Source: a virus. Taken from it: 64,000 nucleotides of DNA. Under the pieces are notes generated by a model. The model was given only the letters and a program-made list of their open reading frames with translations. It was not told where the DNA came from and did no database searches. Below are positions 43,955-63,913 of this stretch, piece by piece (position 1 is the stretch's first letter; every line of letters starts with the position of its first letter). The DNA is taken from positions 26,067-90,066 of the IMG/VR virus record IMGVR_UViG_3300027751_001020; one strand, 5' to 3'. Made by a program: the position numbers and the translations under genes.

Positions 43955-46663
43955 ATGTCATTAGGATATAAACCAAGTTCAATAGTAGGAGGCCCTCTAG
44001 ATGATACTGTAATCGATCAACTTTCAGTAAGAAAAGAGAAAGTATCTAAACAGGCTGGTAGGATAAATGAAGATATTCTATACCTGAATAGCAATACAGG
44101 TTGGGTAAAAATGACTTCTTCTGTAGACGTATTAAGTGAAAATGGTGGATATTCAAATTTACCCTCTAAAAATAGAGTGCTACTAGGAGGAACTTTAGCC
44201 AATAATAGAATACAAGGAGGTATCTTTAATGATAAAGACAATGCTTATAGTAAATCGGATACATTAGGATACAGACCAATGGCCGGTATAACAGGCTTCC
44301 AAGTAGAAGCTAAAAATAACTTCGGTACACTAAGAATAGCCTCAGTAGATTTCAAAGTTAACTCTGTAGAAGAGTTAGATGAGTTAGAGCAGTTATTTTT
44401 AAGACCAGGATTTTCAGTACTACTTGAATGGGGACATTCACTATATTATAATAATGCAGGAGTATTCCAAAATACTATTTTCCCTTTCCCGGATACGTTT
44501 TTTAATTCAATGAAAGGTCAGGATATACATGATCAAATCACTAGAATAAAAGAATACAGTTCCGGTAACTATGACGGTATGTACGGTATTATAAAAAACT
44601 TTGTATGGTCATTTAACTTAGATGGCGGTTATGATTGTAAAGTAGACATAGTATCAAAAGGAGAATTAATTGAATCACTTAGTATGATCATTTCTCCTTC
44701 ATCAAATATAAATTTAGATACTTCTTCTCCATATTTTAATGAAAGTTTAAATACAACACCGTTACATGCTTTTCTTAATACAGTTAAGTATGCGGAAACT
44801 AGAAAATACTTTACTGGCCCTGTAGAAGAAGAAGATCTTAGTACAAATTCTATAACAGATGCACTAGAAAAAAATGTACCTCAATTATACAAAACACTAA
44901 AAACACAAGTAGAAGAAGTAGGAAGGTCTTTCCATGTAATAAGAACACAGCTTGATGGTAATATAGTAAATAACTCCCAACAGTGGACAAGGTATATTAC
45001 ATTAAGCACTTTGATGCAACTTATAAACCAGATCTTTACTTTAAAAAATGAACACGGTGAAATAATTAAATTCCACTTTGGGTCTAAAGGAAATGAAACA
45101 CCTACTTCCTTTTTAACATTTGACGCTCATTTTGGATTAGATCCTCTAATTTGCGTACTACCTAAAACTAGTTCTTCTCTTCTTGCTGAAACTAGAGCAT
45201 TACATTATAAAGTATCAGAACAAGGAAAAATACCTTTTAGTGAAGAGGATTTACTAAATATATATGTAAATATAGATTATATTTTAGGATGTGCAGATCA
45301 AACAATCGCTGCAGAAGATGTAAAAGCAAAAAGTGTCTTTGATTTCTTAAATTCAGTTATAACTGGAATACAGGGTAATTTAGGTGACATAAACGAATTT
45401 CAACTACATTACGAAGAATTTGAATCTACATACTATATTGTAGATAAAAAATTAACACCGGATGAAGGAGTATTAAAAGAATCTTTTGTAGACCTTATTG
45501 GATTAAATTCGACATTAGAAAATTTAACTTTTGCATCTAAACTAAGCAGCTCAGTTACTACTATGATGGCAATAGCTGCTCAAGCAGGAAGTACTAATGT
45601 AGGAACAGATATGCTAGCTATGCAAACTTGGCAGAGAGGTTTGGAAGACAGGCATAATAGACGGAAAAACGTAACTACTAATTCAACTTACGAAAAAGCT
45701 GAAATACCACAAGAAGATATTAAAAGGCTAGGTGAATTTGTTAAAAAATTAAATGGAGCAAATAAGTATTTTATAAAATACAATACTGAAGATATACAGG
45801 GATTAGGACCTACTTTCCGTCTATTAATGGTAAGAATCTTAGAATATTATTCAAAAAAGCAGAAAACTAATCCTGCAGGCCTAATACCTTTTGAGCTTTC
45901 TTTTACAATGAAAGGAATCGGAGGTATGAAAATTGGACAAGCATTCAGAATAGACGATACAATAATACCAAAAAGATATAGAGGTAGTATTGGATTTATG
46001 ATTACCGGAGTATCACATTCAATTAAAAGCAGTAGATGGGTAACCGATATTAAAGCTCAAATGATAATCATAAAGAAACTTGACGAAGAAATACCCACAT
46101 ATGATATACAGAAACCATTAGAACAGGTAGATGACTTTGTATCAGAAGTAGCTGCAATTTCAGCAGGAAAAGGATTTAGAAAGCCTATAGCTGATTTAAA
46201 AGTTTCAAACAGAGGTTTACAAGAAATTAAAAAACACGAAGATCTCAGATTAAATGCATATGTAGATCCAGGCAGCGGATTCAACCCTATTACAATTGGG
46301 TATGGAACAACAAGAATAAAAGGAAAACCCGTCCAGCTTGGAACCACCATTACAGAAGGACAAGCAGAAGAATATTTTAAAGCAGATATAGCAGAATTTG
46401 AAAATCACGTTAAGAGGTATATAAGAGTAGATGTAACTCAAGAGGAATTTGACGCTTTAGTTTCGTTCACCTACAACTTAGGGCCAGGAAATCTAGCAAA
46501 CAGTACCTTACGTAAGAAGATAAACAGTAAAGATTATGTAGCAGCAGCAGATCAATTCTTAGTTTGGAATAAAGCTGCAGGTAAAGTTCTACCCGGTCTT
46601 ACAAAAAGAAGAGCTGCTGAAAAACAAATGTTCTTAACTAACTCACCAGGAAACCCAGCATAA
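43955..46663 (+). CDS. Baseplate hub-like protein fused to a C-terminal GH24 lysozyme
   Basis: N-terminal hub-like region (RPMAGIT...LFLRPGFSVLLEWG); C-terminal HEDLRLNAYVD..ITIGYG, QEEFDALVSFTYNLG, WNKAAGKVLPGLTKRRAAE. Confidence 0.82.
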   Translation: MSLGYKPSSIVGGPLDDTVIDQLSVRKEKVSKQAGRINEDILYLNSNTGWVKMTSSVDVLSENGGYSNLPSKNRVLLGGTLANNRIQGGIFNDKDNAYSKSDTLGYRPMAGITGFQVEAKNNFGTLRIASVDFKVNSVEELDELEQLFLRPGFSVLLEWGHSLYYNNAGVFQNTIFPFPDTFFNSMKGQDIHDQITRIKEYSSGNYDGMYGIIKNFVWSFNLDGGYDCKVDIVSKGELIESLSMIISPSSNINLDTSSPYFNESLNTTPLHAFLNTVKYAETRKYFTGPVEEEDLSTNSITDALEKNVPQLYKTLKTQVEEVGRSFHVIRTQLDGNIVNNSQQWTRYITLSTLMQLINQIFTLKNEHGEIIKFHFGSKGNETPTSFLTFDAHFGLDPLICVLPKTSSSLLAETRALHYKVSEQGKIPFSEEDLLNIYVNIDYILGCADQTIAAEDVKAKSVFDFLNSVITGIQGNLGDINEFQLHYEEFESTYYIVDKKLTPDEGVLKESFVDLIGLNSTLENLTFASKLSSSVTTMMAIAAQAGSTNVGTDMLAMQTWQRGLEDRHNRRKNVTTNSTYEKAEIPQEDIKRLGEFVKKLNGANKYFIKYNTEDIQGLGPTFRLLMVRILEYYSKKQKTNPAGLIPFELSFTMKGIGGMKIGQAFRIDDTIIPKRYRGSIGFMITGVSHSIKSSRWVTDIKAQMIIIKKLDEEIPTYDIQKPLEQVDDFVSEVAAISAGKGFRKPIADLKVSNRGLQEIKKHEDLRLNAYVDPGSGFNPITIGYGTTRIKGKPVQLGTTITEGQAEEYFKADIAEFENHVKRYIRVDVTQEEFDALVSFTYNLGPGNLANSTLRKKINSKDYVAAADQFLVWNKAAGKVLPGLTKRRAAEKQMFLTNSPGNPA

Positions 46664-47175
46664 TGTACCTACCTAAGTCAAAATATAAAGCCGCTAAATA
46701 CACCCGAGGAGAAGAATTTACATTACCTTCCGGTAGACCTTATACCGGATGGTATTTTGAGACATATAAACAGGAATTCTATACAGGTGAATCACCAGGT
46801 ACAGATAACAAACTACTTACACAGTTAAGTAATGGCAGCGTAGAAGAGAATACACTCCGGTTTATTCCACAAAGAGTAGATGAATCAACATTAGATAGAA
46901 CTAAACCTACCTTCAAAAGATACTATATTCAAGATACTAGGAATAAACGTATAATAGAAGTTTTAAAAGAGACGTATTATAAATTTACTTCTAAAACCTA
47001 TATTAAAGGAGTTGAAGTAGAATGGAGAATTAAAGGTCCAGCTGAAACAGCATTTAAAGGTAAATACCTATATGAAGGAGCTGAATCTAAAAATAAAAAA
47101 ACCATAGAAGGATTCGATAATCTACTTCCAGGATTAAAAGACTATATTAAAGACTACAAAGAGTTTGTAGAATAG
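46663..47175 (+). CDS. Hypothetical protein (MYLPKSK family), last gene of the baseplate block
   Basis: TAATG-coupled to the hub gene. Confidence 0.65.
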   Translation: MYLPKSKYKAAKYTRGEEFTLPSGRPYTGWYFETYKQEFYTGESPGTDNKLLTQLSNGSVEENTLRFIPQRVDESTLDRTKPTFKRYYIQDTRNKRIIEVLKETYYKFTSKTYIKGVEVEWRIKGPAETAFKGKYLYEGAESKNKKTIEGFDNLLPGLKDYIKDYKEFVE

Positions 47176-47213: not shown

Positions 47214-48539
47214 ATGTTTTATATAGTTGAAGAAGAATCTAAATTAGTCCATTTAGAGGGTTTAGTAAAATTAGGTTGTTATGTGGATGTAGTATCTTCA
47301 AATGACTTATACCATCCTAAACTTACCTCTACAATTGCCGTATATATCCGAATAGTAGGTAGTGAACAAGGATTCATTATTCCTATAAATCATGACGAAG
47401 GTATAAACGTACCAAAAGAACGTGTCTACAGACTTCTTTCACAAGCTTCAACACTCTACACATTAGACAAGAAAAACCTACTCTACCACTTTAATCTACA
47501 AGGTGCCATAGATCTATCGTTACTATACTCAATGGTAAAGTTTGATAGACTAGAGTATACAAAAGAGAACAGTACTTTAAATTACTTCTACAACAAATTT
47601 AAAGACTTTGAAAACATAAACCAGTTAATTCCTATATCTAAATTACATGAATCATGTGAGAAAATATTTGGACAAGTAGGTCATGTACTGGAATACACCA
47701 TACCAAAAGGTTTTGAATTTTATAATACGACAGCTACTAATGTATTCTTCTTATTAGAGCAGCAAGGTTTAGGAATATACTATGAAAACTTTGTAAGGTT
47801 ATTTACTCCCCGAGATCCTAAATATAATATTCAAGATAATATAGTTCTAACCCAATACAACCTGTACAATGCGACATCTAGACCTACTAATGCTTTTAAT
47901 TCTGTTAATTTCGCTGCTATACCTAAAGATCCAGAGCACAGAGCTTGCTTCCACCCGACCGGTGATTTCTTTGTTGAATTCGATTTTGATGGCTACCACC
48001 TTCGTTTACTTAGCGATCAGATTGATTACCCTTTAACAGATGAATCAGCACACAAACAGCTTGCTAAACACTACTTTGGTACAGAAGATATTACTGAAGA
48101 ACAGTATTTAGAGGCAAAACAGATTAACTTTCAGGCAATTTATGGAAAAATACCTGAACAGCACCGTAATTTAGAGATATTTCAAAAAATACAACAGTAT
48201 ATTGACGATATGTGGAACTTCTACAACGATAATGGAGTAGTCTACAATCCTATCTCGGATAAACCCTTCACCAAAGAGTTAAAAGAGATGCATCCAGCGA
48301 AATTAATGAACTATATGATGCAATCGTTGGAGACCGCAAGAAATATACTTATCTTAAAAGATGTACTAAGGTACTTAAAAGACAAAAAAACCAAAATTGT
48401 CTTATATACCTATGATGCTATACTATTTGACTTCTATAAAGAGGATGGGAAAGAAACATTAGAAGAAGTACAGAGAATAATGGAATCCGAGAAGAAATAC
48501 CCGGTAAAATTTAAATTTAGTAAAGATCTTGTTTTATAA
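47214..48539 (+). CDS. Divergent short family-A DNA polymerase
   Basis: ATSRPTNAFNSVNFAAIPK, motif A EFDFDGYHLRL, motif B KQINFQAIYG, motif C YTYDAIL; degenerate N-terminal exonuclease region. Confidence 0.8.
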   Translation: MFYIVEEESKLVHLEGLVKLGCYVDVVSSNDLYHPKLTSTIAVYIRIVGSEQGFIIPINHDEGINVPKERVYRLLSQASTLYTLDKKNLLYHFNLQGAIDLSLLYSMVKFDRLEYTKENSTLNYFYNKFKDFENINQLIPISKLHESCEKIFGQVGHVLEYTIPKGFEFYNTTATNVFFLLEQQGLGIYYENFVRLFTPRDPKYNIQDNIVLTQYNLYNATSRPTNAFNSVNFAAIPKDPEHRACFHPTGDFFVEFDFDGYHLRLLSDQIDYPLTDESAHKQLAKHYFGTEDITEEQYLEAKQINFQAIYGKIPEQHRNLEIFQKIQQYIDDMWNFYNDNGVVYNPISDKPFTKELKEMHPAKLMNYMMQSLETARNILILKDVLRYLKDKKTKIVLYTYDAILFDFYKEDGKETLEEVQRIMESEKKYPVKFKFSKDLVL

Positions 48540-48558: not shown

Positions 48559-49017
48559 ATGACACAAAATGTTGTAAGTCCACTGTTCGATTATGATATC
48601 GAGCCAATTTATTTAAATGAAGATATGAGTAACAAACTGTTTTGTACGTTTGCCACTGAAGAAACTTTGGCAGGAGTACTTGATACAATACAGGAAAGAT
48701 ACAAGATTATTTACAGCAAAATATTTGTCCTATATTCAAAAAGCCAAGACGAATACATCTGTACATATAATGTTGATTTTGGAAACGTAGGAACGTTTTT
48801 AGACAATACCATCCTGGTACATAGAAAAAAAGAATCGAATACCTTATATACGATTAACGCTTTGAATACCTTGATTAAGGAACTTAACGGAGGCGTACCT
48901 GACCCTAGCTACAGAGTCAACTGGGCAGATTATAGAAACTGTATACTACTCACTAAAGGTCCAGAACTAAAAAGAATCAACACTAAATTATTTCAAATTA
49001 TTGAATTAGATAAATAA
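48559..49017 (+). CDS. Hypothetical protein (start may be ATG 48625, MSNKLFCTF)
   Basis: Ordinary coding composition; a TATTTATA at 48550-48557 sits only 1 nt before ATG 48559, favouring the later start or a leaderless mRNA. Confidence 0.7.
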   Translation: MTQNVVSPLFDYDIEPIYLNEDMSNKLFCTFATEETLAGVLDTIQERYKIIYSKIFVLYSKSQDEYICTYNVDFGNVGTFLDNTILVHRKKESNTLYTINALNTLIKELNGGVPDPSYRVNWADYRNCILLTKGPELKRINTKLFQIIELDK

Positions 49018-49032
49018 GGTTTAATAAAGGTT

Positions 49033-49599
49033 ATGTTGGAGATCTCCTTAACAGGACATACAAAAGGAATTGGAAAAGCCCTATATGAGAGTTTATCTAC
49101 CGCCTACTCAGTAAAAGGATACAGTAGGTCTAATAACTACGATATATCTACAGAAGACGGTAGGTTAGAGATTCTTAACGCAGCAAAAAATAGTAATGTA
49201 TTTATTAATAACGCATACTTTGAAAATGCACAAACTGAACTATTTACATTATTCTTTACTGAATGGATTTACGATGAAAACAAAACAATTGTAAATATTT
49301 CCAGTCAATCAAAGTACCCAGGTATGAGTAAAAACTGGTCCGGATACTCAGCATACAAGGCGTCACTTAACCATCAAGCTTACCTTTGCGGATTTAAGAC
49401 AGACAGGAAATGTAGAATTATTACTATAAATCCCGGGTTAGTTAAAACCAATATGACCCTCTCTACACAAAAAACCGGAAAAGGAATGCTAACCTCAATG
49501 GAAGTTGCATCAGCAGTAAAGTGGGCGATTGAGACTCCTCAACATATAGAAATTGGAGAACTCAGCCTCTGGTATAAATCTCCAGATCAATCAAGGTAG
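49033..49599 (+). CDS. Short-chain dehydrogenase/reductase
   Basis: TGHTKGIG, FINNA, VNISS, YSAYK (YxxxK). Confidence 0.85.
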   Translation: MLEISLTGHTKGIGKALYESLSTAYSVKGYSRSNNYDISTEDGRLEILNAAKNSNVFINNAYFENAQTELFTLFFTEWIYDENKTIVNISSQSKYPGMSKNWSGYSAYKASLNHQAYLCGFKTDRKCRIITINPGLVKTNMTLSTQKTGKGMLTSMEVASAVKWAIETPQHIEIGELSLWYKSPDQSR

Positions 49600-49600
49600 T

Positions 49601-50452
49601 ATGAAAGTTAATAAATTTCAATTTAGGTGGGAAGAAGTTACTGCAGATAGTATTAATAATACACTACTCCCCGGGCTACGTAATTTAGAGATAAATCCGA
49701 CTGAACTTTGTAACAGAACATGTAGTTTTTGTCCAAGAGTAAATGCAGAATTATATCCAAATTCTAACCTACATATGAAATTAGAAACAGCAAAACTACT
49801 TTCAGAACAATTGCAAGCAGCTAAGTATACAGGAGAAGTAGGATTTGTAGGGTTTGGAGAACCGGTATTAGCAAAAAACATACTAGACCTTCTAGCAGAA
49901 TTTACACCGTATTTTTATACATACACCATGACTAACGGGGATGTATTCTTAAAGGGAAGACAAAAAGTTGAAGATTATATAAATATAGGAGTTCAACTAC
50001 TGATTGTAAACTGTTATGATAACAAAGAGCATTTAGAGAAACTTTCACACCACTTTAAACCTTACGGTAATCAAATTAAAATACAGATTAGGCATTTAGA
50101 AGATACAGGTGAGGTTACAATTTTTAAAGAATATGGATTAACCAATAGAGGAGGAATATTTAATAAAGTAGAACCCCAACAAAGAGGATGTTACATTCCA
50201 TTTTATAAAGCAATTGTAGATTGGAATGGAGACGTATTACTATGTAGTAAAGATTGGCAAAGACAAGAAAAAAATTTAAACAATATCACAAATAAACCCT
50301 TTCCAGAATTATGGACTAGTTCAAGATATAACCACATAAGAAAAACACTTTTAAAAGGGAATAGAATCGAAATACCTGCGTGTAAACATTGTGATGTAAA
50401 TGGATTAAGAGTAGGGAAAGAAAGTGTTGAAGTTTTTAAAAATATACTTTAA
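49601..50452 (+). CDS. Radical SAM enzyme with canonical C-terminal SPASM/Twitch domain (start revised to ATG 49601)
   Basis: CNRTCSFC, GFGEP, CYIPF..DWNGDVLLC..DW...CKHCD. Confidence 0.88.
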   Translation: MKVNKFQFRWEEVTADSINNTLLPGLRNLEINPTELCNRTCSFCPRVNAELYPNSNLHMKLETAKLLSEQLQAAKYTGEVGFVGFGEPVLAKNILDLLAEFTPYFYTYTMTNGDVFLKGRQKVEDYINIGVQLLIVNCYDNKEHLEKLSHHFKPYGNQIKIQIRHLEDTGEVTIFKEYGLTNRGGIFNKVEPQQRGCYIPFYKAIVDWNGDVLLCSKDWQRQEKNLNNITNKPFPELWTSSRYNHIRKTLLKGNRIEIPACKHCDVNGLRVGKESVEVFKNIL

Positions 50453-50517: not shown

Positions 50518-51336
50518 ATGGATTTGAGTGCAATTCAAGCAAAGCTAGATGCTTTGAGCTCTAATGGTCAAGAGAGAGAAAAAATTGACTATTCAACTAT
50601 TTTTTGGAAACCGCAATTAGGAGAACAGACAGTACGTTTAGTTCCTTCTACTTATGATCCTTCCATGCCGTTTACGGAAATGAAATTCCATTATGGAGTT
50701 GGAAAGTACCCGATGGTAGCTTTATCAAACTTTGGTAAGCAAGATCCAATCGAGGAGTTCGTAGCCGAACTAAAAAAGACTTCTGATAAAGACAACTGGT
50801 CATTAGCGGGTAAATTGAATCCTAAGACTAGAATCTTTGCTCCTGTAATTGTTAGAGGAGAAGAAGAAAAAGGAGTTAGATTATGGGGATTTGGTATTAC
50901 TATCTATAAAGCCTTACTAGCTATTATTTCTGACGAAGATTACGGAGATATTACAGACCCGGTAAACGGTACAGACCTTACAGTTACTATGACTGCAGGT
51001 AATCCTTACCCAGAAACCTCATTAAGACCTAAACGTAACTCTTCAGGTTTAACAGAAGATAGTGCGTTATTGGATAAGTGGTTAAAAGAACAACCAGACC
51101 CTAAAGAAGTTCATAATGAATACGATTACGCTTTCATTAAGAAACAATTACAAGGTTATTTAGATCCCTCTTCTGTAGCTGAAGCAGCTCCTGCTGCCTC
51201 AACAAACTCAAACATCGATACTTCTTTACCTGCAAGTTTAGGACAAGAGAAAGTACCTGCTGCGTTTACTACTGAAGCAGCAACTGTAGGAAAACAAGAT
51301 ACAGTTAGTAAATTTGACGATCTATTTAACGAGTAA
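50518..51336 (+). CDS. Single-stranded DNA-binding protein (T4 gp32-like)
   Basis: FWKP...VRLVP, DPIEEF, EEKGVRLWGFG, YGDITDPVNGTDL; acidic C-terminus DDLFNE. Confidence 0.8.
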   Translation: MDLSAIQAKLDALSSNGQEREKIDYSTIFWKPQLGEQTVRLVPSTYDPSMPFTEMKFHYGVGKYPMVALSNFGKQDPIEEFVAELKKTSDKDNWSLAGKLNPKTRIFAPVIVRGEEEKGVRLWGFGITIYKALLAIISDEDYGDITDPVNGTDLTVTMTAGNPYPETSLRPKRNSSGLTEDSALLDKWLKEQPDPKEVHNEYDYAFIKKQLQGYLDPSSVAEAAPAASTNSNIDTSLPASLGQEKVPAAFTTEAATVGKQDTVSKFDDLFNE

Positions 51337-51341
51337 TATTT

Positions 51342-52412
51342 ATGGCTAAGAAGAAAGAAGTACAAGAGGCCGCATCTGCGGCAGTCAAGAAGAATTTTAA
51401 CCTTGGCAATTTTAAGAAGAAGAAAGGTTTTTCTGAAGCCTCGGTTAAGTTCAAACAACAAGAATGGATACCTCTTTCTCAAGCATACCAAGATATCACC
51501 TCCCTCCCCGGTATTCCTACCGGACACATCACACTCCTTCGCGGACATAGTGATACGGGCAAAACAACTGCCCTACTAGAAGCTGCAGTCAATGCCCAGA
51601 AATTGGGCATACTGCCAGTTTTTATCATATCGGAGATGAAATGGTCTTGGGACCATGCTAAAGAAATGGGACTACAGTTCGAAGAAGTTAAAGATGCTGA
51701 TGGAACTGTAACCGATTATGAAGGTCACTTCCTATATGCTGATAGGGGTACATTAAATACTATCGAAGAGGTAGCAGTCTATATGGCTGACTTAATGGAC
51801 GAACAGTCTAAAGGTAACTTACCATTCGATATGTGTTTCTTCTGGGATTCAATTGGATCTATTCCTTGTGATTTATCAGTACGTTCTAATAAGAACAATA
51901 ATGAATGGAATGCAGGTGCGATGTCTACTCAATTTGGTAATAACTTGAATCAAAAGATTCTATTATCAAGAAAAGAGAACTCACCTTATACAAATACTCT
52001 AGTAGCTATTAATAAGGTATGGACACAAAAGCCTGAACACCCTATGGGTCAGCCTAAACTACAGAATAAAGGAGGAATGTCTATGTGGTATGATGCTACA
52101 TTAGTAGTTACTTTTGGTAACATTACAAACCCTGGAACTTCTAAGATTAAAGCTGTAAAAGACGGCCTTCAAGTCGAGTTTGCCAAAAGAACTAACATCC
52201 AGATTGAAAAGAACCATATTGGAGGAGTTCAGTCTAGAGGTAAAGTTGTAATGACAGCACATGGATTCATCCCAGACGATAAAAAGGCTATTGATAAGTA
52301 TAGAGATGCCCACAAAGAACACTGGTTAAAATTAGTTGGAAGTATCGACTTCGATCTTATTGAAGAAGGAGATATGGAAGAGGAAAAAATAACTACCGGA
52401 ATTCTTGATTAA
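51342..52412 (+). CDS. recA: RecA/UvsX-like recombinase
   Basis: Walker A GHSDTGKT, WDSIGS, KGGMSMWYDA motifs. Confidence 0.85.
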   Translation: MAKKKEVQEAASAAVKKNFNLGNFKKKKGFSEASVKFKQQEWIPLSQAYQDITSLPGIPTGHITLLRGHSDTGKTTALLEAAVNAQKLGILPVFIISEMKWSWDHAKEMGLQFEEVKDADGTVTDYEGHFLYADRGTLNTIEEVAVYMADLMDEQSKGNLPFDMCFFWDSIGSIPCDLSVRSNKNNNEWNAGAMSTQFGNNLNQKILLSRKENSPYTNTLVAINKVWTQKPEHPMGQPKLQNKGGMSMWYDATLVVTFGNITNPGTSKIKAVKDGLQVEFAKRTNIQIEKNHIGGVQSRGKVVMTAHGFIPDDKKAIDKYRDAHKEHWLKLVGSIDFDLIEEGDMEEEKITTGILD

Positions 52413-53431
52413 TGGGGAACTATAGTAACATTTTAGATAATCTCAAACCCACCCCACCCCGAGAGCTGAATGACCATATCTTGGTCATAGATGCTATGAA
52501 TATGTTAATTCGTAGCTTCTCACTGCTCAAAGCAATGAACCCATCAGGTCACCATGTAGGCGGCCTGGTAGGCTTCTTGCGATCACTGGGGTTTGTTACA
52601 AGAACTTTTGACCCTTCAAGAGTTATAATTGTATGGGACGGTAAGGGAGGTTCAGCTAACAGAAAAAATATTGATCCGAATTATAAAGCACAGAGAGCTA
52701 CTTCAAGAATAACCCACTGGGGACTTTATGATACAAAAGCTGAAGAAACTGAAGCATTAATTGGACAGTTATTTAGAACTCAAGATTACTTGGAATGTCT
52801 ACCAGTCCAGCAGCTTATGATGGAAAAATTGGAAGCTGATGATATTATAGCATATTTGGCTAAAACAGCTTCTAAGTCTAAAAAGAAACTAACAATAGTT
52901 TCATCAGATAAAGATTTTTTACAACTTGTAGACGAATATGTAGAAGTATACGCTCCAGTAAAAAAGAAAACGTTTACAAAAGGTAATATAGAAGAAGAAC
53001 TTCAAGTTCTACCGGAAAATTATAATATTGTAAAAGCGTTATTAGGAGATAATTCTGATAATTTAGCCGGAGTAAAAGGATTAGGAATTAAAACTATTCT
53101 ATCTCAATTTCCAGACCTAGTTAATAAACCGGGTATGACTCTTGATTATGTTTATAACATATGTGAAGAGAAGATGAATGAGAAGAAGATCTTTCCTAAA
53201 ATAATTACCGAATGGGATAGAGTTGAAACCAACTTTAAACTAATGGACCTGCATATTACTGATCTTGATCAGAAAGAAATGGACCATGTTAAGGATGTAC
53301 TTAAAGAGGAGGTCAATAAACTACAAACCGGAGCTTTCTTACATTTGCTTGATGAAGATAAGATTGAAGGTATTACAAAAAATACTGAAGGGTGGTTAGA
53401 AAACTTTAGAAGATTAACAGTAGTAAAGTAG
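52412..53431 (+). CDS. 5'-3' exonuclease / flap endonuclease (Pol I N-terminal / T4 RNase H-like)
   Basis: IDAMNM, WDGKGG, YKAQR, EADDII, SSDKDFLQL, GDNSDNL.GVKG.G.KT. Confidence 0.93.
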   Translation: MGNYSNILDNLKPTPPRELNDHILVIDAMNMLIRSFSLLKAMNPSGHHVGGLVGFLRSLGFVTRTFDPSRVIIVWDGKGGSANRKNIDPNYKAQRATSRITHWGLYDTKAEETEALIGQLFRTQDYLECLPVQQLMMEKLEADDIIAYLAKTASKSKKKLTIVSSDKDFLQLVDEYVEVYAPVKKKTFTKGNIEEELQVLPENYNIVKALLGDNSDNLAGVKGLGIKTILSQFPDLVNKPGMTLDYVYNICEEKMNEKKIFPKIITEWDRVETNFKLMDLHITDLDQKEMDHVKDVLKEEVNKLQTGAFLHLLDEDKIEGITKNTEGWLENFRRLTVVK

Positions 53432-53481: not shown

Positions 53482-54831
53482 ATGACATTAAAGAGCTTAC
53501 AGCAGTACGGGAAGGGGTTCCAACTAAAAGTACTAGGATCATTACTCACAGACAAGAAATTTCTACTAAACGTTAGAGACGTACTCAAAGAGGACTATTT
53601 TGATGCCGATTCACATAAGTGGATTATCAACAACATTATGGAATACTTTGACAAGTACCACACTACCGTTACAATGGATGTGCTTAAAGTAGAACTTCAG
53701 AAACTAGATAACGAGATTTTAGTTGTAGCGTTAAAAGAAGAGTTAAGAAACTCTTATGCAGCCACCCAAGACGATTTAGAGTATGTACAGGAAGAGTTCT
53801 TAGGATTTTGTAAGAACCAGGAAATGAAACATGCAATCTTATCCTCAGCAGACTTATTAAAAGAAGGTGATTTCGACGGTATTAGAAATATGGTTGAAAA
53901 AGCAATGAAAGCTGGAATGGATAAGAATATGGGTCATGAGTACAACAAAGATGTAGAATCTCGATATAGAGAGAACTATAGACCTACCGTTCCTACACCT
54001 TGGCCTTTAATGAATGATGGAATCCAAGGAGGCTTTGGCCCAGGAGATTTAGTTATCGTATTTGGTAACCCAGGAGGAGGTAAATCTTGGACGATGGTAG
54101 CTGCAGCAGCTCATGCTGTTAAAATGGGGTATAATGTTAATTACTATACTTTAGAGTTAGGTGAAGATTATGTAGGTAAACGATTCGACTGTTATTTTAC
54201 TGGATACTCTATAGATGAAGTAAATAAACATAGAGGAGAAGTTGAAAAAGTAGTTGAAGGTCTTAAAGGTAAACTTATTGTAAAAGAATACCCGCCTAAA
54301 GGAGCTACAGTAAACACTATTAAGTCTCATATCCAGAAATGTATTGATATGGACCATAAACCAGATATGATTGTAATCGACTACGTTGATTATTTACGTG
54401 CACCGTCTAAAGGTAAGTTCGCAGAACGCAAGGATGAAATCGATGATGTATTTATCGCTACTAAAGGGCTAGCCAAAGAGTTTCAAATACCTGTCTTAAC
54501 CCCATCACAAGTTAACCGAATGGGAGCCAAAGATTCAGTAATTGAAGGAGATAAAGCTGCAGGTTCTTATGATAAAATGATGGTAGCCGATATCTGCTTA
54601 TCACTTTCTCGTCAGAAAGAAGACAAGGTATTAGGTACAGGTAGAATACACGTTATGAAAAATAGATACGGCCAAGATGGTATGACTTATGATGTAATGA
54701 TGGATACAAATAACGGTCATATTGAATTTAAAGGCAAAGCAGATCCTGCTGATTTAATGGCAGCCGATGATAAACCAGTTTTCTCTTTAGATAGAGAAAC
54801 TATGGCTAAAGTTTTTGATAAAAAGTCATAA
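53482..54831 (+). CDS. dnaB: DnaB-like replicative helicase (gp41-like)
   Basis: GNPGGGKS, TLELGE, IDYVD, PSQVNR, KNRYG. Confidence 0.9.
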   Translation: MTLKSLQQYGKGFQLKVLGSLLTDKKFLLNVRDVLKEDYFDADSHKWIINNIMEYFDKYHTTVTMDVLKVELQKLDNEILVVALKEELRNSYAATQDDLEYVQEEFLGFCKNQEMKHAILSSADLLKEGDFDGIRNMVEKAMKAGMDKNMGHEYNKDVESRYRENYRPTVPTPWPLMNDGIQGGFGPGDLVIVFGNPGGGKSWTMVAAAAHAVKMGYNVNYYTLELGEDYVGKRFDCYFTGYSIDEVNKHRGEVEKVVEGLKGKLIVKEYPPKGATVNTIKSHIQKCIDMDHKPDMIVIDYVDYLRAPSKGKFAERKDEIDDVFIATKGLAKEFQIPVLTPSQVNRMGAKDSVIEGDKAAGSYDKMMVADICLSLSRQKEDKVLGTGRIHVMKNRYGQDGMTYDVMMDTNNGHIEFKGKADPADLMAADDKPVFSLDRETMAKVFDKKS

Positions 54832-62242: not shown

Positions 62243-62389
62243 ATGTCAAAAACATCAGCAAAACAACGCTACACTCAGTTAATGGAATGGTTACCTACAG
62301 TTAAACAAGGTAAAGCATCAACACCAGGATCTAAAGCTCCTGCACGTACTTTTTCAAAAGCAGACACTTATAATAGAGACAAAAGATAA
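62243..62389 (+). CDS. Unannotated 48-aa basic protein MSKTSAKQRYTQLMEWL...
   Basis: Directly after a promoter; TAATG-coupled to thioredoxin. Confidence 0.65.
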   Translation: MSKTSAKQRYTQLMEWLPTVKQGKASTPGSKAPARTFSKADTYNRDKR

Positions 62390-62649
62390 TGAAAAAAATA
62401 ATTAAATTTTATGCCGATTGGTGCGGTCCTTGTAAGGTATACGGGAAGTCTTGGGATAAGGTAGCAAAAAAGTATGACGGTCAAGTAGAATTTGTTAGTA
62501 TAAACATTGAAGAAGATACTACAGGCTTAGCTGCACAATACAAAGTAAAGAGTATCCCACATACGGTCCTAATTAAAGAAGACGGAACCGAAGTTACAAA
62601 AAGTGGTAGAATATCACAAGAAGAGTTAGAAGAATTAGTTTTATCTTAA
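62389..62649 (+). CDS. trxA: Thioredoxin
   Basis: FYADWCGPC active site; V.SIP. Confidence 0.93.
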   Translation: MKKIIKFYADWCGPCKVYGKSWDKVAKKYDGQVEFVSINIEEDTTGLAAQYKVKSIPHTVLIKEDGTEVTKSGRISQEELEELVLS

Positions 62650-63118: not shown

Positions 63119-63913
63119 ATGGCAAAAAATGTTGTAGTATCCTTATCAGGAGGGATGGATTCCTCTACTCTATTATTACGTGCTCTTTCTACGTATGACA
63201 CAGTAACAGCTTTATCTTTTAACTATGGTCAGAAACATAGTGTTGAACTTCAAAGAGCTCAAGCACTTGTTGACTACCTTAAGTCTAAAGGTCAAAATGT
63301 TACTTACCAATTAATTGAACTAAATGGATTAGTTAACCTATTAGACTCAGCTTTAGTATCAGGCGGAGATGATGTACCGGAAGGTCATTATGAGCAAGAT
63401 AATATGAAAGCTACTGTAGTACCTAACCGAAACAAAATCTTTAGCTCTATCACACAAGCTGTAGCTTTATCAGTAGCAAATAGAACTGGTAATAATACAG
63501 ATATTGCTTTAGGTATTCATGCCGGAGATCATGCCGTATATCCAGACTGTAGACAAGAGTTTAGAGATGCAGATGATGAGGCATTTAGACAAGGAAATTG
63601 GGATGCTGATAAGGTTGGGTTTTTTACACCATATTTATTAACTGATAAGTTCGGTATTTTACAAGATGGTTTAATTTTATGTGATCTGTTAGATTTAGAC
63701 TTCGATGAAGTTTACAAAAGAACTAACACCTCATACAAACCTTATCCATCAGGTAACTCAGATTACAAATCAGCATCTTCAGTAGAACGTATTGAAGCGT
63801 TTATTAAACTTGGTCGTAAAGACCCAGTTCAATATGAAGATGAAACTGGCCCAGTAAGCTGGGAAGTAGCTAAGTCTGCAGTTGAGAAGGTATTAGCCGA
63901 TCACGCAGGTTAA
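63119..63913 (+). CDS. queC: 7-cyano-7-deazaguanine (preQ0) synthase QueC
   Basis: SLSGGMDS, FNYGQKH..EL, TVVPNRN, GIHAGD...YPDCR.EF. Confidence 0.95.
   Translation: MAKNVVVSLSGGMDSSTLLLRALSTYDTVTALSFNYGQKHSVELQRAQALVDYLKSKGQNVTYQLIELNGLVNLLDSALVSGGDDVPEGHYEQDNMKATVVPNRNKIFSSITQAVALSVANRTGNNTDIALGIHAGDHAVYPDCRQEFRDADDEAFRQGNWDADKVGFFTPYLLTDKFGILQDGLILCDLLDLDFDEVYKRTNTSYKPYPSGNSDYKSASSVERIEAFIKLGRKDPVQYEDETGPVSWEVAKSAVEKVLADHAG

Follow-up and report, generated by a model that had tools for sequence, protein, structure and literature searches.

The open reading frame at 47214-48539 of the window, the 64,000-nt stretch of DNA analysed here (bases 26067-90066 of an IMG/VR phage record that is 104 kb long, with its completeness put at 63%), encodes a family-A DNA polymerase that belongs to divPolA1, and is one more member of that published, computationally described family. 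From its conserved residues and its gene context we read it, with a probability of about 0.6, as an active auxiliary DNA polymerase and not as the main replicase of the phage. Such an enzyme would have kept a working palm and fingers while losing 3'-5' proofreading and nearly all of the thumb. A first assay could usefully address the His that replaces the steric-gate Glu throughout the family, and the obligate companion gene as well, yet neither makes the gene itself novel.

Reading frame and catalytic motifs

The frame is open and stop-free over 441 codons, and its product matches the Pfam DNA_pol_A domain (PF00476) over residues 208-432 with 41.5 bits, against a gathering cut-off of 34.3. 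We aligned the protein to Klenow with phmmer against PDB sequences and then with a 120-sequence family profile; the Klenow residues were numbered by the chain offset, counting chain residue 1 as 324. In both alignments all motifs pair with Klenow without internal gaps. The gene and the features placed in it are as follows:

47214-48539, + strand: divPolA1 gene, a thumb-truncated, exonuclease-dead family-A polymerase of 441 aa (ORF, phmmer, profile, model)
47214-47693, + strand: N-terminal 3'-5' exonuclease-like domain, about residues 1-160 (codons, conservation, model)
47874-47927, + strand: TGR-type motif T221-S-R223-P...N232...K238, with R223 equivalent to Klenow R668 (profile, conservation, model)
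47982-48005, + strand: motif A, D257-F-D-G-Y-H262-L-R (codons read directly, DFDGYHLR)
48105-48146, + strand: motif B (O helix), Y298...K302...F306...Y310-G311 (codons read directly, YLEAKQINFQAIYG)
48411-48431, + strand: motif C, Y400-D401-A402...D406 (codons read directly, YDAILFD)

A preliminary description of this DNA, made from the letters alone, had read motif A with D257 and H262, a motif B that keeps K302, F306 and Y310-G with a Tyr where R754 lies, and a motif C of Y-D401-A against H-D882-E in Klenow, all in a protein of only 441 aa with a degenerate 3'-5' exonuclease region. The gap-free alignment and the codons bear out all three motifs, and the translation and codons agree with the length and with the degenerate region. 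In motif A, F-V-E-F-D257-F-D-G-Y-H262-L-R pairs with Klenow I-V-S-A-D705-Y-S-Q-I-E710-L-R; in motif B, Y298-L-E-A-K302-Q-I-N-F306-Q-A-I-Y310-G pairs with R754-R-S-A-K758-A-I-N-F762-G-L-I-Y766-G; and in motif C, Y400-D401-A402 takes the place of H881-D882-E883. The resulting equivalents are D257 for D705, H262 for E710, Y298 for R754, K302 for K758, F306 for F762 and Y310-G311 for Y766-G. Three Klenow residues are absent from this polymerase, namely the Glu of the steric gate (E710, here H262), the motif B Arg (R754, here Y298) and the second carboxylate of motif C (E883, here A402).

Fold, thumb and exonuclease-like domain

An AlphaFold2 model of divPolA1, with the family alignment as input, reached a mean pLDDT of 97.2. 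Its top Foldseek matches are family-A DNA polymerases only (apicoplast Pol, Klenow, Pol theta, Pol nu, Bst and Taq), and the best 50 structural matches are all DNA polymerases, with T7-type RNA polymerases not among them, although absence from such a list does not by itself exclude a family. The structure-based alignment that had been suggested as a check places the model on the Bst Pol I large fragment (3hpo) far beyond chance: VIA-align gave a Z of 27.7 and an rmsd of 4.2, with 412 of the 441 residues aligned, from residue 1 onwards, to Bst residues 300-874. Since the alignment to Bst starts at residue 1, the N-terminal third is a vestigial exonuclease-like domain, as in Bst and Taq.

Within this domain the residues at the Exo I position are D25-V-V (47286-47300, DVVSS), and those at Exo II are N88-L-L-Y-H92 (47475-47489). 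Positions 25, 27 and 92 are not conserved as acidic in the family, and the equivalent of Exo III was mapped without certainty; an hhalign comparison of the family profile with the regular PolA of the same phage returned a weak motif A match only and was of no use for mapping the exonuclease motifs. The domain has a near-invariant polar set of its own in 138 family representatives (H34, H60, E62, K87, D100 and E146); these are not canonical DEDD residues, and they may mark a binding site or a new activity. K143 is also near-invariant here, and the position of E62 is acidic in 100%.

The profile alignment pairs query residues 165-201 with Klenow chain residues 198-234 and query residue 206 with residue 324, so that about 90 thumb residues of Klenow, forming long helices, are without a counterpart in divPolA1. 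The model likewise has only about 20 residues between the helix at 190-197 and the T-S-R223 motif, and what is left of the thumb is a stub at about residues 198-220, just upstream of the TGR-type motif.

Membership and conservation of the divPolA1 family

[quoted passage not shown] The family was named by Yutin, Tolstoy, Mutz, Wolf, Krupovic and Koonin (Virol J 2024;21:200, PMC11348598; preprint 10.1101/2024.04.26.591309), who described it in immuto and uncultured relatives, 14 phages in all with sizes of 155-190 kb. All of them have a regular DNAP (family A, B or C) in addition, and it is divPolA1, not the regular DNAP, that occupies the conserved replication context (PMC11348598). Query and family have in common the truncated thumb, the inactivated exonuclease domain, the conserved palm residues, the replication genes that follow downstream and the presence of a regular DNAP in the same genome, and no feature sets the query apart. 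The 2023 reclassification of PolA by Czernecki et al. has 19 clusters, none of them named as divPolA1-like, and treats the steric-gate position as a conserved landmark, position A2 (PMC10201439). In the divPolA1 preprint (10.1101/2024.04.26.591309) the words 'steric' and 'ribonucleotide' each occur 0 times. What goes beyond the text of that paper is the family-wide His gate, the Tyr at the R754 position, the Ser or Ala at the E883 position, the invariant E373, the obligate companion and the extent of the family in metagenomes.

Metagenome clusters that match divPolA1 number 2131 at 90% identity and 1054 at 50% identity (490 below E 1e-30, compared with the 14 genomes of the publication; nearly all 420-460 aa). 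Conservation was scored on 138 full-length representatives of the 50%-identity clusters, which are 28-48% identical to the query. R223 (R668), D257, K302, Q370 (Q849), E373 and D401 are invariant in 138/138, while D406 is kept in 137, Y310 and Y400 in 135 each, and F306 in 130. The steric-gate position carries His in 136 representatives, Gln in two and Glu in none; the R754 position carries Tyr in 101, Ile in 12 and Arg in nine; and the E883 position carries Ser in 103 and Ala in 34. Judged by these alignments, the His at the gate is a hallmark of the family and no quirk of one phage, and H262, Y298 and A402 are fixed family features that would remodel the nucleotide-binding pocket. Because six active-site residues are invariant in 138 diverged representatives, divPolA1 is probably an active enzyme and not a non-catalytic scaffold; the pattern looks like what purifying selection on a working active site would give.

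Gene neighbourhood and the companion gene

The genes on either side of divPolA1 are listed below:

43955-46663: 902-aa protein with a C-terminal phage-lysozyme domain, probably the baseplate hub
46663-47175: 170-aa protein, poorly conserved, always upstream of divPolA1 with the hub
48559-49017, + strand: companion gene 'dn152', 152 aa, alternative start at 48625 (synteny in related loci)
50518-51336, + strand: gp32-type ssDNA-binding protein (module synteny)
51342-52412, + strand: UvsX/RecA-type recombinase (module synteny)
52412-53431, + strand: 5'-3' exonuclease / flap endonuclease, a homologue of the Pol I N-terminal domain (module synteny)
53482-54831, + strand: DnaB-type replicative helicase (module synteny)

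Where the flanks allow, 80 IMG/VR loci show one fixed order: baseplate hub/lysozyme, 170-aa gene, divPolA1, companion of about 150 aa, gp32, UvsX, 5'-3' exonuclease and DnaB. With the hub and the 170-aa gene invariably upstream of it, divPolA1 stands at the boundary of the tail and replication modules. Between the companion and gp32, at 49033-50452, the window carries two further genes, one SDR-like and truncated (188 aa), the other of the radical SAM/SPASM type (299 aa). In the 80 related loci gp32 begins about 50-80 nt after the companion, and neither of the two genes found a BLAST match there; they appear to have been inserted in this phage lineage alone.

The gene starting at 48559 or 48625 had been put forward as a possible partner of the polymerase, and it does turn out to be a strictly co-located companion in related loci. 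Among the 80 IMG/VR loci retrieved with the polymerase profile, it lies directly downstream of divPolA1 in every locus with room. In the reverse test, divPolA1 lies directly upstream in 79/79 loci retrieved with the companion (at least 300 nt upstream), usually across a gap of 22-90 nt; the two sets of loci overlap heavily. The pair is also kept in Microcystis phage Mel-JY01, in which divPolA1 is 29% identical and motif A reads D-Y-D-A-F-H, and in the 484-kb LR756508. This co-location supports a functional link between the two genes. The companion is more conserved than the polymerase, with 50-64% identity where divPolA1 has 35-39%, and its core L-V-H-R-K-K-E-S-N-T-L-Y-T-I-N-A-L-N is nearly invariant. 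In a few related IMG/VR loci (L049, L056, L074, L078 and L091), 600-800 nt are inserted between the two genes, which are otherwise about 20 nt apart or overlap.

The model of the companion has an alpha/beta fold (pLDDT 83). Its best Foldseek match in the PDB has an E of 0.12, and the best of 48,161 chains compared by VIA-align reaches a Z of 5.5, for a ferredoxin-like half; in the ESM Atlas every TM score is at most 0.43 when searched by shape, and a search by features gave no match. The companion profile had no match at E 10 among PDB sequences, and the companion had none in Pfam, PHROGs or NCBIfam. A likeness to the SV40 T-antigen origin-binding domain was rejected, its Z of 5.0 over 91 residues being at background level. 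Prediction of a complex between divPolA1 (alignment A1) and the companion (alignment A2) scored 0.00 against a mark of 0.32, a result that counts neither for nor against binding. Two divPolA1-companion fusions, P0274 and P0277, were set aside as Rosetta-stone evidence: they are singletons, and on the contig of P0277 the genes for divPolA1, UvsX and the hub are broken as well, so that the assembly is riddled with indels. In the assembly L096 (ENA ERZ1699696 contig_4247, 159 kb) the same three genes are interrupted, and the companion ORF is joined to the C-terminal half of divPolA1, a pattern typical of indel errors and not of a natural fusion.

Other polymerases and a primase in the same and related phages

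A check for another canonical polymerase or primase, which the preliminary description had proposed, found both in the same phage record. A second and far stronger PolA match lies at the end of the contig (G000:C1, about 102159-104015), as a 619-aa open frame cut by the contig end. Its Exo I-III motifs are intact (A-V-D-T-E-T-T-G, H-N-A-S-F-D and Y-A-S-A-D), its motif A, D-A-D-Y-E-S-L-E, has a Glu gate, and its motif B reads R-N-K-A-K-A-Y-S-L-G-I-A-Y-G. A 314-aa ORF with DnaG_N and Toprim_2 domains is a DnaG-type primase. The presence of a canonical PolA and of this primase in one phage makes divPolA1 neither its sole polymerase nor its primase. The earlier judgement that the protein is unlikely to be an ordinary replicase thus gains from the intact Exo I-III and Glu gate of the second PolA, and a role in primer synthesis, also considered then, becomes unnecessary.

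The closest cultured relative, Flavobacterium phage vB_FspM_immuto (160 kb), has the 441-aa gp001, a 778-aa canonical PolA and the same primase. Mel-JY01 combines divPolA1 with PolB, and the uncultured phage LR756508 combines it with PolB and a Pol III alpha-like gene. It is divPolA1 that is constant and the regular replicase that varies, as Yutin et al. reported (PMC11348598). The regular PolA of the present phage has a Tyr at the Klenow F762 position, as in T7. The phage also encodes its own thioredoxin (62389-62649 of the window).

Possible roles of divPolA1

We propose that the separate proofreading PolA, primed by the phage's DnaG-type primase, probably does the bulk of genome replication, and that divPolA1 would perform short, non-processive, template-directed DNA synthesis. 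One candidate job is gap filling while the flap endonuclease removes primers, which would amount to a Pol I split into separate genes, with the product of 52412-53431 as the candidate working partner in primer removal. Another candidate job is the extension of recombination intermediates (D-loops) made by UvsX and gp32. Either specific job, gap filling or extension, is much less probable than the auxiliary role as such. Reading the enzyme as a helper of the Pol I type draws on its presumably low processivity, its lack of proofreading, its context of SSB, recombinase, flap endonuclease and helicase genes, and its retention whatever the replicase. As three nucleotide-contacting residues (Klenow E710, R754 and E883) are changed, catalysis may be slow or the substrate unusual. 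Counting against the proposed role, no phage is known to us that depends on an extra polymerase for gap filling; T4, T5 and T7 rely on their replicase together with a FEN. Furthermore, a more central role is conceivable, as the conserved replication context houses divPolA1 and not the regular DNAP.

The changed pocket invites a different reading, in which the His gate relaxes sugar selectivity and allows insertion of rNTPs or efficient use of RNA primers, as when primers made by DnaG are lengthened and then passed to the replicase. The Glu of Klenow E710 reportedly acts as a steric gate against ribonucleotides (Astatke et al. 1998), and it is the bulk of its side chain that is said to do so (Astatke et al. 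1998; Brown and Suo 2011). The gate carries Glu in none of the 138 representatives, and the majority motif C, Y-D-S (103/138), resembles the H-D-S of T7-type RNA polymerases, in which a small residue follows the motif C Asp. Yutin et al. weighed the possibility of an RNA polymerase for divPolA2, the sister group, but not for divPolA1 (PMC11348598). However, His keeps the C-beta/C-gamma bulk of the Glu gate and could equally hydrogen-bond Y310, F306 and Y310 are themselves Pol I-like, the best 50 structural matches are DNA polymerases without exception, and the phage has a dedicated primase, so that we regard relaxed selectivity as unlikely. A search of the literature for E710H, E615H or E658H mutants found none that is relevant. 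It is distinctly unlikely that divPolA1 and the companion make up a two-subunit polymerase in which the companion replaces the thumb and the His gate gives an unusual sugar specificity (for ribonucleotides or RNA primers, for instance); were this true, hundreds of large aquatic phage lineages would carry a new kind of primer-handling enzyme. The constancy of divPolA1, its vertical inheritance, its position at the head of the replication module and the companion in every locus with room would also suit a true core replicase formed by the two proteins, in which the companion or module proteins supply the grip on DNA and the regular DNAP, which varies between families A, B and C and has a mixed gene context, does something else. 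We consider this improbable for an enzyme with neither proofreading nor thumb in genomes of 160-480 kb, given that the regular PolA of the same phage has all its exonuclease and polymerase motifs intact and that a regular DNAP is kept in every complete genome checked. Finally, a protein that has lost its thumb, its exonuclease carboxylates and the counterparts of R754 and E883 could be a pseudo-polymerase that binds DNA or replisome partners, a non-catalytic role that the preliminary description had allowed for. This conflicts with the six invariant active-site residues: a scaffold would need no pattern in which both metal-binding Asp stay invariant at 28-48% identity together with the Lys of motif B and the residues that match Q849 and R668, and we hold it to be very improbable.

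The preliminary description had also linked the polymerase to modified nucleotides through queC, and this link is weakened. In immuto dG is completely replaced by fdPreQ1 (10.1101/2023.04.13.536721), and the present phage has both QueC (63119-63913) and a DpdA3 homologue 82% identical to that of immuto, all of which would fit a divPolA1 specialised to insert or copy 7-deazaguanine nucleotides. (A search with PF01702 (TGT) was uninformative, as it found no match even in immuto, where DpdA3 is known, and the immuto DpdA3 protein was used instead.) The DpdA3 homologue is located some 3 kb upstream of the regular exo+ PolA (G000:C1, about 98292-104015, downstream of the window), however, and in this phage as in immuto it is the regular PolA, and not divPolA1, that has the cluster as its neighbour. 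The enzyme DpdA, a DNA transglycosylase, modifies DNA after synthesis (10.1101/2023.04.13.536721), which again argues against a specialised polymerase, and the 7-substituent would point into the major groove, away from the changed residues. QueC and DpdA3 homologues were not detected in Mel-JY01 or LR756508, both of which keep the His-gate divPolA1 together with its companion, so that the distribution of the family is not tied to deazaguanine modification. We give a deazaguanine specialist hardly any credence.

Comparison with known polymerases

The large fragments of Bst and Taq share with divPolA1 the overall fold, an inactive 3'-5' exonuclease-like domain, a Phe at the Klenow F762 position and a 5'-3' nuclease partner, which in this phage is a separate gene. 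Unlike them, divPolA1 misses about 90 thumb residues, has shortened fingers, and carries H, Y, Y and A in place of E710, R754, H881 and E883. At three nucleotide-contacting positions its pocket is unlike that of any characterised family-A polymerase, and the thumb is missing, so an assay would show how far the Pol I fold can be stripped and whether His can gate. The family is abundant and is kept by large aquatic phages whatever their main replicase. A cultured model exists in Flavobacterium phage immuto, which grows on Flavobacterium sp. LMO8, and the companion gene is a concrete second target for study.

The divPolA2 of barbaviruses is likewise a second, divergent, thumb-less PolA beside a regular DNAP. 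Its N-terminal globular domain is unrelated, its gene neighbourhood varies and it has structural matches to RNA polymerases (PMC11348598), whereas in divPolA1 the exonuclease-like domain is retained and the replication context is fixed. The single-subunit RNA polymerases of the T7 type belong to the same superfamily as divPolA1, which, unlike them, appears to have no promoter-recognition N-terminal domain and no specificity loop, and which lacks the motif B Arg. TV-Pol proteins (Iyer, Abhiman and Aravind 2008) are said to be minimal palm-fingers polymerases of mobile elements, PolA- or T7-RNAP-like, linked to primases and helicases and without an exonuclease-like domain of the Pol I type. That description would set them apart from the present protein, whose Pol I-type N-terminal domain and fixed phage synteny point to divPolA1 and not to TV-Pol.
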